Origin: Bacillota bacterium | GTDB lineage: Bacteria > Bacillota > Clostridia > Monoglobales > Firm-18 | Reading direction: 5' to 3' | DNA length: 64,000 nt | NCBI GenBank assembly: GCA_022706765.1 | Contig: JAKJBX010000001.1 | Coordinates: forward strand, 140,534-204,533 | In this document: positions 28,614 to 33,415 of the stretch, in pieces | How the letters are laid out: every line of letters starts with the position of its first letter | Numbering within the stretch: the stretch's first letter is position 1 | Notes under the pieces: model-generated | Seen by the model: only the letters and a program-made list of their open reading frames with translations | Told to the model about the DNA's origin: nothing | Database searches by the model: none | Position numbers and translations under genes: made by a program

Positions 28614-29894
28614 TCATACAAACTGGTTTTTATCCGCCCAAAGTCCTAAGGCGGGGTTGCTGATATAAAAGATTTCCTCCCCGTCAGCCATGGTGTTCCA
28701 GCCGTCCGTAAGCTTTTTAGGGTCATAGCGCTTCAGCATTTCCGTTAGGGGCGCATAGTTGAAATTCACCTGCTCGACTTCTTCTCTTGACAGCTTGTCC
28801 ACCGCATAGGTGATGGAAAACTTACCGTCCGAAGAGCCATGGATCAGATGCGCCGCCACGGACAGATTGCATTGCAGGTCTGCATTGCTTTCGCACAGCT
28901 TCAAAACTTCCAGTCTGCCCGCATAGCCGTATTTTCTGATGAGGGCGTCGTTGGCGTCGTCCTCCCCGAACTTTTTCACCCCGGGAGCCAGCACGATCAG
29001 TGCGCCCCCTTGGGCAATCGCCATCCTGGTGCGATAGATTGCCTTGTTCCCCAGCCAGGTGCTTTTGAACTCACGCTCGTCTAAGTAGACCACCACTTTT
29101 TTTGGCGCCCTGTCCACAAAGCTGATGTTTTTCTCCTGGCTGAGGGCGACGGCTTCCTCAAAAACCGTCCGCTCCCTGCCGATAAACAGTCCGTGCAAAT
29201 CTATGCCGTCTCCGTTTTGGGTGGTGACCGTCAAAATATACAGCAAGGGCACATTTTGCATAAAATGCCGCTCTGCGTAATCAAAAACCTTTCTCACAGG
29301 GGAGTGGTCTCTGCCCATCACACGCTCCATGCCGTAAAAAGCGCCCAGCATGTGGGACTGGCTGATCATGCTGCATCCGCCGCAGCCCACAAAGATGTTT
29401 TTGCTGTAATTCGCCATGCCCACCACCTCATGGGGAACCACCTGCCCGATGGAAATCACCAGATCATAGGAGGGATCCAGCAGCACCTTGTTCACCTCAA
29501 CGTCAATGGCGTTTTTTACCAAACCTTCAGAGACCTCCTCCACAAACGCTTTGGGGATCTCTCCGATTTTCACAATATCCGTCCGCCATCGGTGTTCAAT
29601 CATGCGTTCCATGGGCACTTCGTCTCCGAAAAACGCCCGCCATTCGCTTTCGCACATGGGCTCGTGGGTACCCAGCGCCGGAATAATATCCACTTCACAG
29701 CGATCCTTTAACAGGCTGTAAAGCATGGCGGTGATTTTGCCCGCGCCCGAATGCATCCGAGTAAAATCCGGCGGGATCAGCAGCACTTTGTTCAGGGCTT
29801 TGCTTTCCAGCGCCTGCCGCAATGCCGCAAGAACGACGCTGTCCGAAATGCCGGCGGCTTCTTTTATCACAATATTATTCATCATAAACCCCAT
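28614..29894 (-). CDS. LarA-like (lactate racemase / DUF2088 family) putative nickel-pincer-dependent 2-hydroxyacid racemase or epimerase
   Basis: 426 aa. LLIPPDFTRMHSG resembles the LarA SSDHTRPVP region. GQVVPHEVVGMANYSKNIFVGCGG resembles the LarA ESHFFAGFSGGRKS region, with His and Lys retained. The start lies 2 nt after the gnd stop. Confidence 0.65.
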   Translation of the reverse strand: MGFMMNNIVIKEAAGISDSVVLAALRQALESKALNKVLLIPPDFTRMHSGAGKITAMLYSLLKDRCEVDIIPALGTHEPMCESEWRAFFGDEVPMERMIEHRWRTDIVKIGEIPKAFVEEVSEGLVKNAIDVEVNKVLLDPSYDLVISIGQVVPHEVVGMANYSKNIFVGCGGCSMISQSHMLGAFYGMERVMGRDHSPVRKVFDYAERHFMQNVPLLYILTVTTQNGDGIDLHGLFIGRERTVFEEAVALSQEKNISFVDRAPKKVVVYLDEREFKSTWLGNKAIYRTRMAIAQGGALIVLAPGVKKFGEDDANDALIRKYGYAGRLEVLKLCESNADLQCNLSVAAHLIHGSSDGKFSITYAVDKLSREEVEQVNFNYAPLTEMLKRYDPKKLTDGWNTMADGEEIFYISNPALGLWADKNQFV

Positions 29895-29896
29895 CG

Positions 29897-31348
29897 TTAA
29901 ACAATATAGGTTGATGCGGAGGTGGTACCTCCCCGTCCCGTCCAGTTGGTGTGGAACAGCTCGCCTCTGGGCTTGTCTATCCGTTCATAGGTGTGTGCGC
30001 CGAAATAATCCCGCTGCGCCTGCAATAAGTTAGCGGGCAGCCGCTCGCTTCTGTAACCGTCGAAATAGCAGAGGGCGGAAGAAAACGCCGGAACCGGTAT
30101 ACCGCTGAGCATCGCGGCGGACACCACCCTGCGCCAGCCCGCCTGTGCGTTTTGCACCGCTTCCATAAAGAAAGGGTCCAAAAGCAGATTGTCCAAAGCG
30201 GGATTTTTGTCAAATGCCTCCTTGATGTTGCCCAGGAAAGTGGACCGGATGATGCACCCGCCCCGCCACATCAGGGCGATCTCTCCGTATTTCAGGTCCC
30301 AGCCGTAGGTCTGCGCCGCAGCCCGCAGCAAGGTATAGCCCTGTGCGTAGGATACGATCTTGGACGCAAACAGCGCATTTTTAATATCTTCAATAAAAGC
30401 CTTTTTATCCCCTGTAAACTTCGTTTCCGGTCCGCTGAGGATTATGGAAGCCCTGACCCGCTCCGCTTTTATAGCGGACAGGCAGCGTGCATAAACTGCT
30501 TCTCCGATCAGGGTGAGAGGAATACCCTCATCAAGGGAGGCGACGGAGGTCCATTTCCCTGTTCCCTTTTGTCCGGCGGTGTCTAAGATTTTGTCCACAA
30601 TAGGCGCTCCGTCGGTATCCTTATACGCCAGTATATCACGGGTAATTTCAATCAAATAGCTATCCAGCACGCCCTGGTTCCACTCCGCAAACACCTGATG
30701 CATCTCGTCGGCGGACATCCCCAAGTATTCCCGCATCAGATGATACGCCTCGCAGATCAACTGCATATCGCCGTATTCGATGCCGTTGTGCACCATTTTT
30801 ACGAAATGCCCCGCACCGTCGTTGCCCACCCAGTCACAGCAGGGGATGTCGCCCTCCACCTTGGCGGCGATCGCCTGGAAGACGGGCTTCACAGCCGGCC
30901 ATGCCTGAGGCGAGCCTCCGGGCATGATGCTCGGTCCTTTGAGCGCGCCCTCTTCGCCGCCGGAAACGCCCGTGCCGATATACAAAAGCCCCTTGTCCTC
31001 CACATATTTCGTGCGGCGAATGGTGTCGGGGAAATGGGAATTCCCCCCGTCGATCAAAATATCGCCCTCATCCAAATAGGGGATGATCAGATCGATAAAA
31101 TCGTCTACCGGCTTGCCTGCCTTTACCATCATCATGATCTTGCGGGGTTTTTTCAGGCTGTCCACCAGCTCCTGTACCGTGGTCGCACCGATGATATTTT
31201 TGCCCTTTGCCCTGCCGTTTACAAAAGCGGTGACCTTGTCTGCGGTGCGATTATAAACCGCCACGGTAAAACCCTTGCTTTCCATATTCATGACCAGGTT
31301 TTCCCCCATAACCGCCAACCCAATCAACCCAATATCCGCCTTATTCAT
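29897..31348 (-). CDS. gnd: 6-phosphogluconate dehydrogenase, decarboxylating
   Basis: [28 protein letters not shown] and the full-length family signature are present. GAGAGGAA lies 9 nt before ATG 31348. Confidence 0.93.
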
Positions 31349-31383
31349 AACAAACAATTCCTCTCATTCATAGAATAAAAACC

Positions 31384-32463: not shown

Positions 32464-32500
32464 ATCTTTCTCCTTTTCCGCCGCGCTGTACCGGCATTGA

Positions 32501-33301
32501 TTATCTATCAAAAATAAATTGATCTATCACATGGGCGACCCCGTCCTCATCGTTGGAACGGGTGATAAAATCCGCCCTGTCTTTCACGGCTTGGGGCGCA
32601 TTTGCCATAGCCACCCCCAGCCCGGCATATTCGATCATGGAAAGGTCGTTGAACCCGTCTCCTACGGCGATCATCTCGCTCGGTCGGATGCCATAGTGCT
32701 GCCCCAGCTTCTCCATGGCGATTGCCTTGGATGCTTTGCAGTCCACAAATTCCAGGAACATGGGTCTGGAAGCATGGCAGTTGACCCTCCCTGCAAATCG
32801 GGCGCCCAGCTCAGACTGATACCGCTGGATTTTAGTTATGTCGTCATACCATAAAATTTTTGTGATCCCCCTTTGGATCAAATCCTCAAAATCCTCAACA
32901 ACCGCAGGCTCCACGCCGGATATTTTCTTATAATCCTCGGTCTTGTCGTTAACTGCCTCGATGAACAGCATGCCCCCGGACCAAATCATCATGGTCATGC
33001 CGCACCGCTGTCCCTCCGCAATGATCTCCCCGGCGTCCTCCGGCGAAAGGGTTTGCTCAAACAGCTTTCGTCCCGATTTGCCCATGACCACTTCGGCGCC
33101 ATTGAAGGTGATAAAGGGCAGATCCACCGAAAACAGCCGGTTGATGCTCTCCACACCGCACATAGGTCTGCCGGTGGAGACGGTAAAAACGACCCCCTTG
33201 TCCACCGCCCGCAAAATGGCGGCTCTGTTCCGTTCAGTCAGCTGCGATTCACTGTTGAGAAGCGTTCCGTCAATATCTACCGCAATCAATTTATAAGCCA
33301 T
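32501..33301 (-). CDS. Cof-type HAD-IIB family phosphatase
   Basis: Begins MAYKLIAVDIDGTLLNS (DxDGT motif) and contains GDGFNDLSM. The start is ATG 33301. Confidence 0.85.
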   Translation of the reverse strand: MAYKLIAVDIDGTLLNSESQLTERNRAAILRAVDKGVVFTVSTGRPMCGVESINRLFSVDLPFITFNGAEVVMGKSGRKLFEQTLSPEDAGEIIAEGQRCGMTMMIWSGGMLFIEAVNDKTEDYKKISGVEPAVVEDFEDLIQRGITKILWYDDITKIQRYQSELGARFAGRVNCHASRPMFLEFVDCKASKAIAMEKLGQHYGIRPSEMIAVGDGFNDLSMIEYAGLGVAMANAPQAVKDRADFITRSNDEDGVAHVIDQFIFDR

Positions 33302-33386
33302 ATCCCATCCATTCCAAACCCCTGAGGGTTTTCCCTGATAAAAATTTCCCCGCACACTTTTACTGTCATTTTATGCGATCGCATCT

Positions 33387-33415
33387 ATTTTACATCAGAA
33401 GCAATCCCTTGTCAA
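33387..33415 (-). promoter_or_regulatory. sigma-A promoter of the HAD-kinase-gnd-larA-like operon
   Basis: On the minus strand, TTGACA (plus 33410-33415), a 17-nt spacer, then TAAAAT (plus 33387-33392). The perfect 12-bp palindrome ATGCGATCGCAT (33374-33385) follows immediately. Confidence 0.55.

Follow-up and report, generated by a model that had tools for sequence, protein, structure and literature searches.

An operon of four co-directional genes lies on the minus strand of a 64-kb stretch of DNA from a Bacillota bacterium; this whole stretch is called the window below, and all coordinates are window positions. From 5′ to 3′ the genes encode a Cof-type HAD-IIB phosphatase, a PfkB-family kinase, the 6-phosphogluconate dehydrogenase Gnd and a homologue of LarA (LarAH), which is a candidate hexonate 2-epimerase (Table 1). 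The initial annotation, made from the sequence alone, described four tightly packed genes behind one promoter, and the coordinates of the open reading frames (ORFs) together with a promoter-like site agree with that description. The intergenic gaps are 37, 35 and 2 nt, counted from the ATG starts and with the 426-residue ORF for LarAH.

The four genes form a real operon with one promoter-like site. A scan found no minus-strand promoter-like or terminator-like sites between them, and clear Shine-Dalgarno sequences accompany the PfkB gene and gnd. The promoter-like site comes just after the GC-rich terminator-like hairpin, which marks the 5′ boundary of the operon. A regulatory RNA in the operon leader was rejected, as the Rfam search of the leader gave no match to a regulatory RNA or riboswitch. 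Beyond the last gene, the perfect inverted repeat has only four GC pairs and the T tail is absent; it is therefore a poor intrinsic terminator, and may represent a weak terminator or a protein-binding site.

Table 1. Features of the operon and its boundaries (window positions)
Feature	Position	Strand	Remarks
LarA homologue, group 18, putative nickel-pincer nucleotide (NPN)-dependent hexonate (D-mannonate/D-gluconate) 2-epimerase	28614..29894	-	426 aa
gnd, decarboxylating NADP+-dependent 6-phosphogluconate dehydrogenase	29897..31348	-	483 aa from ATG
KdgK-like PfkB-family sugar-acid kinase	31384..32463	-	359 aa from ATG
Cof-type HAD-IIB phosphatase	32501..33301	-	266 aa from ATG
Promoter-like site TTGACA-17-TAAAAT, 11/12 consensus matches	33387..33415	-	consensus scan; match only, ~85 nt upstream of Cof start
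GC-rich terminator-like hairpin + T run (13 pairs, 9 GC)	33462..33491	-	closes upstream tRNA-Lys unit
tRNA-Lys	33643-33718		upstream of hairpin 33462..33491
Perfect AT-rich 20-bp inverted repeat, 5-nt loop	28489..28533	.	~80 nt downstream of LarAH stop, before tRNA-Val
tRNA-Val (28347-28423), then terminator-like hairpin (28328-28301)	28301..28423	-	3′ boundary of region

For LarAH the NCBIfam model “nickel-dependent putative hexonate epimerase” (NF052594) gives 644.9 bits, with a cut-off of 500, and is covered from position 4 to 410 of 411. The Lar_N domain PF09861 is detected at 54.6 bits, the LarA model NF033504 gives E = 1e-7, and the closest solved structure is that of GntE2 from Thermotoga maritima (PDB code 4NAR, E = 7.5e-29). 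In an alignment with L. plantarum LarA, GntE1, GntE2 and one group-18 protein, residues D43, R46, H77, H155, K165, H181 and K284 correspond to D72, R75, H108, H174, K184, H200 and K298 of LarA. The columns of H77 and H155, the catalytic pair, are invariant, as are those of the NPN-binding or tethering residues K165, H181, D43 and R46, and that of K284. The catalytic His pair, the NPN-tethering Lys and the nickel-binding His are therefore all kept. Profile search and alignment had been proposed as checks on the LarA-like identity, and both bear it out. The start of the protein is ambiguous: the longest ORF has 426 residues, while the NCBI gene call has 423 and begins 9 nt later, at 29885, so that LarAH follows the TAA stop of gnd after either 2 or 11 nt. 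The best alignment with homologues begins at about residue 5.

LarA homologues were sorted into 25 groups by Desguin et al. (2020), who reported D-mannonate/D-gluconate epimerase activity for groups 19 and 20 and hypothesized that group 18 (“G2E3”) is probably also a hexonate epimerase (PMC7583248). The 20-residue active-site signature of LarAH, D R H H E V K H V W L N K S A A L I H S, is identical to that of group 18, and the segments PPDFTR, GTH, PHEV, NYSKN, SQSH, PVR, STWLGNK and SVAAHLIHGS match the published group-18 logo. The sequence identity is 50% to a group-18 member from A. capsulatum, 26% to GntE1 and GntE2 and 20% to LarA, and reaches about 70% for the best non-self relatives; some NCBI records name homologues “D-mannonate epimerase”. 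By signature and profile, LarAH is a bona fide member of the LarA superfamily belonging to group 18. With GntE2 (TM0442), a group 20 enzyme, it shares the fold, the catalytic residues, the Glu following the catalytic His and the AAH motif. It shares with L. plantarum LarA (PDB code 5HUQ) the superfamily, the catalytic His pair and the Lys and His that hold the NPN, but the pocket residues F175/F176 are replaced by Glu and Val. The residues E, V, A and H at LarA positions F175, F176, W358 and T359 are the specificity residues of GntE (PMC11770544). In LarAH they are found as H155-E-V and in the segment V-A-A-H-L-I, where the register of the A-H pair is alignment-dependent.

An epimerase interconverting D-gluconate and D-mannonate, which the initial annotation mentioned as a member of the superfamily, does exist. 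NPN-dependent interconversion of the two acids has been shown only for GntE1, GntE2, LarAH10 and LarAH15 (PMC7583248, PMC11770544). LarAH15 from Phytophthora nicotianae is a narrow-spectrum GntE with a KM of 9.4 mM and a kcat of 111 per s on D-mannonate (Urdiain-Arraiza et al. 2024, PMC11770544). Its P. infestans homologue is listed in group 18 (PMC7583248), and on the placement of that homologue a group-18-type enzyme has very probably been assayed already in the form of LarAH15.

Gnd is recognized by TIGR00873 at 777 bits (cut-off 427) and contains both domains, PF00393 and PF03446. A YNRT segment is visible in its translation; NRT, the NADP 2′-phosphate motif, is a marker of NADP preference.

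The kinase contains the PfkB domain PF00294 (75.6 bits) with NEED and GGGD motifs. It scores under the cut-off of every named NCBIfam kinase model, including the KdgK models NF052444 (31 bits, cut-off 400), NF041332 (99.5, cut-off 440) and NF040938 (39.8, cut-off 400). Its best solved relative is the 2-keto-3-deoxygluconate (KDG) kinase of T. maritima (PDB code 2AFB, E = 2e-29), and no FGGY or gluconokinase model is found among its Pfam and NCBIfam matches. The kinase is thus not of the usual GntK type, as had been remarked, being neither an FGGY nor a P-loop enzyme. It is the putative C6 kinase for gluconate and/or mannonate. In records from Bacillota, Bacteroidales and Marinilabiliaceae the kinase is 77–83% identical, and is conserved more than LarAH. 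In some relatives (loci L003 and L010) a gluconate-kinase-like gene of the FGGY family stands in place of PfkB, which fits a hexonate-kinase role for that slot; the same FGGY family is found near LarAH in L050.

A scan with one genome per species returned 80 LarAH loci, whose LarAH proteins are 44–71% identical. They come mostly from Clostridia of gut, rumen and digesters, and also from Verrucomicrobiota, Planctomycetota, Spirochaetota and Bacilli. In tblastn searches, 59 of the 80 loci have gnd near LarAH and 47 have a PfkB kinase of the window type there, nearly always on the same strand and in several gene orders. The neighbourhood counts were made on 66 informative loci, all from other species and with enough flank, within 6 kb of LarAH. 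There gnd occurs in 52 loci and a same-strand PfkB in 42; one or more hexuronate genes (UxaC, UxaE or a short-chain dehydrogenase/reductase (SDR)-type D-mannonate oxidoreductase) are present in 26, and a phosphoesterase (PHP, 297-aa HAD or Cof) in 30. PfkB adjoins gnd on the LarAH strand in 39. The conservation of the gene neighbourhood had been named as a check in the initial annotation, and the counts for gnd, PfkB and the hexuronate genes speak for it. The clustering of LarAH, gnd and PfkB is not due to chance, because their one-strand association recurs in dozens of species.

Of the 80 loci, 15 have an SDR, usually adjoining LarAH, that reaches 445 bits with the D-mannonate oxidoreductase model PRK08277 (cut-off 281); the glucuronate isomerase UxaC (624 bits) is near LarAH in 15, and the tagaturonate epimerase UxaE (PF16257, 638 bits) in nine. 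These conserved neighbours point to D-mannonate as the input. Neither the mannonate dehydratase UxuA nor a 2-keto-3-deoxy-6-phosphogluconate (KDPG) aldolase was identified among the annotated recurrent neighbour families. Around the closest relative of the kinase (83% identity) the gene order is LacI-SDR-PfkB-Gnd-LarAH-UxaE. In a Bacteroidales locus the gene set is placed beside GH88, GH28 and SusC/D genes, and looks like part of a pectin utilisation locus.

Taken with the homology of the proteins and the conservation of their active sites, this neighbourhood supports a route in which hexuronate is converted via fructuronate to D-mannonate, and D-mannonate, by an epimerase and a kinase, to 6-phosphogluconate and ribulose 5-phosphate. 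The operon is likely to be the lower branch of hexuronate/hexonate catabolism, ending in the pentose-phosphate pathway, with the epimerase acting before the kinase. D-mannonate would come from glucuronate or galacturonate through UxaC, UxaE and a fructuronate reductase encoded elsewhere in the genome, or would be imported directly. LarAH would then invert D-mannonate at C2 to yield D-gluconate, using the NPN cofactor and proceeding through transient hydride transfer to a 2-keto intermediate. The KdgK-like kinase would phosphorylate C6 of gluconate, and the NADP-dependent Gnd would decarboxylate the resulting 6-phosphogluconate to ribulose 5-phosphate, CO2 and NADPH. Which substrate is used, which acids the kinase accepts and whether epimerization precedes phosphorylation are predicted from sequence and gene context. 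The path from a sugar acid through gluconate and 6-phosphogluconate to ribulose 5-phosphate, which was the proposal of the initial annotation, is supported by the same homology, active-site conservation and synteny. Its further suggestion that the whole gene set serves one route is supported for LarAH, gnd and the kinase, whose linkage recurs; the membership of Cof is doubtful in view of the housekeeping context of its closest homologues and its absence from the closest relative's operon.

Several observations weigh against this interpretation. The NCBI label of the NF052594 family remains “putative”. Extracts of L. suebicus run the kinase and epimerase steps in the opposite order (PMC6978723), and the KM of LarAH15 for free mannonate leaves room for a different native substrate (PMC11770544). 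The kinase family is about 80% identical across the phyla Bacillota and Bacteroidota, and of five neighbourhoods examined around kinase homologues, three show the kinase alone, away from LarAH and gnd, as in Hydrogenispora ethanolica (L087). It may be a general KDG-type enzyme not dedicated to this route, and these neighbourhoods leave a pathway-specific PfkB kinase unsupported. Within the window, Pfam and NCBIfam scans of about 48 ORFs revealed no regulator or transporter in or beside the operon and, together with a motif scan, no larB, larC or larE, in agreement with what the initial annotation had noted; tblastn found no UxaC, UxuB or UxaE. Neither mannonate nor the cofactor therefore has a visible source in the window. 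ORFs of the size of LarB, LarC and LarE at 42–53 kb proved to be mreBC, pbp2, minD, mgsA, dapF, dapL and cysS.

The Cof-type phosphatase is well defined as a protein, with 195.5 bits for TIGR00099 (cut-off 137), 208 bits for PF08282 and HAD motifs I–IV in the form DIDGT, STGR, K and GDGFND. Its closest homologues (60–62% identity) are found in a trmK-NIF3-cof-thrS context, and the operon of the closest relative has LacI and SDR genes where Cof would be. Both observations weaken the case for Cof as a conserved enzyme of the pathway. Cof genes occur in the LarAH clusters of three loci besides the window (L055, L056 and L058), and these homologues are 42–48% identical to the Cof of the window. 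Cof is co-transcribed with the other genes, most likely as an accessory or incidental neighbour, and at best would be a relief valve for phosphorylated aldonates.

Two other phosphoesterase families recur in the related loci. A PHP-domain phosphoesterase of about 280 residues directly follows LarAH in about 30 species, always on the same strand and with a median gap of 16 nt (for example L013:9396-10259, L017:7901-8830 and L040:9281-10111). The protein resembles TrpH, and its scores stay under the cut-offs for pAp phosphatase and RNase RNM. A HAD protein of about 297 residues with the motif DSDGCVFDT adjoins gnd in five loci which have the PHP gene and are without the PfkB kinase; examples are L004:4600-5499, L040:10136-11029 and L061:1052-1999. 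This HAD protein has no NCBIfam match, and in L004 and L007 a “phosphofructokinase-like” gene of the PfkA family stands beside it. The best guess for the recurring phosphoesterases is a relief or proofreading function on 6-phosphomannonate or 6-phosphogluconate.

The principal alternative reverses the order of the two middle steps: PfkB would phosphorylate mannonate, and the group-18 LarA homologue would act as a 6-phosphomannonate 2-epimerase supplying 6-phosphogluconate to Gnd, with phosphatases checking the dead-end intermediate whenever too little of the nickel enzyme is active. Either order makes chemical sense, since a KdgK-like kinase should care little about C2; that a KDG-kinase-like enzyme would be fairly indifferent to the configuration there speaks for the kinase-first order. 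So do the extracts of L. suebicus, which convert mannonate with ATP to 6-phosphomannonate and then to 6-phosphogluconate, while without ATP no gluconate is formed from mannonate (PMC6978723). The genes for these activities are not named in that work, and no later paper found in the literature searched assigns them. An accumulating phosphorylated intermediate would also explain more easily why three unrelated phosphoesterase families (PHP, 297-aa HAD and Cof) recur in the related loci, although a phosphatase is missing from many clusters. The high KM of LarAH15 and a motif YR(T/S/A)R, which follows the catalytic Lys and is a conserved feature of group 18 not shared by groups 19 and 20, are in line with the same order. 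Against it, LarAH15, itself very probably of the group-18 type, does turn over free D-mannonate, GntE2 and GntE1 likewise use the free acid, and the activities on record for LarA homologues concern non-phosphorylated substrates. Moreover, the candidate kinases of L. suebicus are homologues of gluconate kinase and not PfkB (PMC6978723). The kinase-first order is rather unlikely. The Thermotoga model and the in vitro data on free mannonate favour the epimerase acting first, which is judged roughly three times as likely. It is similarly doubtful that the kinase and LarAH account for the two L. suebicus activities still without genes, with the PHP, HAD and Cof phosphoesterases as relief or proofreading valves for the phosphorylated aldonate. 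If the kinase-first order were true, LarAH would be the first member of the LarA family acting on a phosphorylated substrate.

A different substrate for the epimerase, that is another hexonate or uronate-derived acid (L-gulonate/L-idonate, D-altronate/D-allonate or an aldarate) with an indirect link to gnd, is improbable. Group 18 is only a “putative” hexonate epimerase and its signature differs from those of groups 19 and 20 at several specificity positions. An aldo/keto reductase is present in clusters L013, L027 and L028 and a GFO/IDH/MocA oxidoreductase in L088, and the native substrate of GntE1 itself has been questioned (PMC7583248). Yet the product must reach Gnd, and within one kinase step only D-gluconate or 6-phosphogluconate does so; the neighbouring reductase scores above the cut-off of the D-mannonate oxidoreductase model, and UxaC and UxaE yield fructuronate, the precursor of mannonate.

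The genes might also share no pathway at all: gnd would be a housekeeping gene, the kinase an ordinary KDG kinase and Cof a generic phosphatase, all co-transcribed by accident with an unrelated LarA homologue. The housekeeping context of the closest Cof homologues, the occurrence of the kinase family alone and the status of gnd as a core gene might suggest this, but it is very improbable, as Bacillota, Bacteroidota, Verrucomicrobiota, Spirochaetota and other phyla have LarAH, gnd and the kinase linked in differing gene orders, for which chance is no explanation.

The preferred route, with epimerization preceding phosphorylation, follows the same logic as the uxaE-gntE-gntK-gnd branch of T. maritima, which leads from mannonate through gluconate and 6-phosphogluconate to ribulose 5-phosphate, as far as that branch (Rodionova 2012) is described in PMC6978723 and PMC7583248. 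To the extent covered there, the Thermotoga kinase is gntK and the cluster is without a phosphatase, while the operon here carries a KdgK-like PfkB and Cof. The hybrid isomerase/phosphoketolase pathway of L. suebicus (Valk et al. 2020) likewise leads from mannonate to 6-phosphogluconate and then to Gnd, and makes the conversion of galacturonate to ribulose 5-phosphate redox-neutral (PMC6978723). It differs in placing the kinase first and a 6-phosphomannonate 2-epimerase second, as opposed to the epimerase-first order favoured here. Valk et al. searched L. suebicus with Thermotoga “TM0042”, described as similar to aldose 1-epimerase, while GntE is TM0442, a LarA homologue (PMC6978723, PMC7583248). 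That search may therefore have missed a LarA-type candidate in L. suebicus. With the canonical isomerase pathway (UxuA, KdgK, KdgA/Eda) the route has the upstream steps to mannonate in common, and the kinase is a homologue of KdgK. In contrast to that pathway, the kinase is paired with gnd, and mannonate dehydratase and KDPG aldolase are absent from the window as well as from the annotated recurrent neighbours.

The interpretation is not new, as it matches the published group-18 hypothesis and the existing NCBI family model. The published context table for group 18 lists SDR (36%), 6-phosphogluconate dehydrogenase (32%), ribokinase-family kinase (16%), UxaC and KduI (PMC7583248 supplement), and group 18 is not usually clustered with larBCE (PMC7583248 Table S1), as is the case here. 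LarAH agrees with group 18 and NF052594 in signature and in gene context (gnd, ribokinase-family kinase, SDR, UxaC) and is a member from which nothing essential differs; compared with many group-18 members, its operon is without SDR, UxaC and UxaE, and has a Cof phosphatase instead. Three points are added to the published table: a highly conserved KdgK-like PfkB enzyme, or in some species an FGGY kinase, takes the position of the kinase; D-mannonate oxidoreductase, UxaC and UxaE are usual partners; and phosphoesterases recur in LarAH clusters. The existing picture is left unchanged, and the order of the epimerase and the kinase is the one question that could change it.

The route would convert uronic acids from pectin and from host glucuronides to ribulose 5-phosphate with no net redox cost; it has been argued that the NADPH from Gnd can pay for the reduction of fructuronate (PMC6978723). 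It would also make the catabolism of a common carbon source dependent on nickel and the NPN cofactor, and is relevant for gut and rumen Clostridia and for the engineering of pectin use.

Two other genes of the window touch on this metabolism. A split transketolase at 54712-56486 (+), with genes for the N- and C-terminal subunits overlapping by one base, would process pentose phosphates from the operon. A 1220-residue protein encoded at 3164-6826 (-) combines heparinase II/III-like, DUF4962 and CBM96 domains. Its architecture resembles that of lyases acting on uronic-acid polysaccharides, and the protein may provide the organism with uronates.

Downstream of the operon, a Na+ riboswitch aptamer (RF03071) is found at 27942-28010 (-) with 42.5 bits against the Rfam gathering score of 40.5. 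It is preceded by a promoter-like site with 12/12 matches at 28064-28036, and followed on the same strand by a 43-residue OadG-like membrane ORF (~27735-27866) and the gene for the beta subunit of a Na+-translocating decarboxylase (26555-27691). Elsewhere in the window, two release-factor genes follow secA, at 13194-14168 and 14199-15290 (+). With its start at PCRF model position 22, the first of these ORFs is consistent with the programmed frameshift that is usual in prfB.

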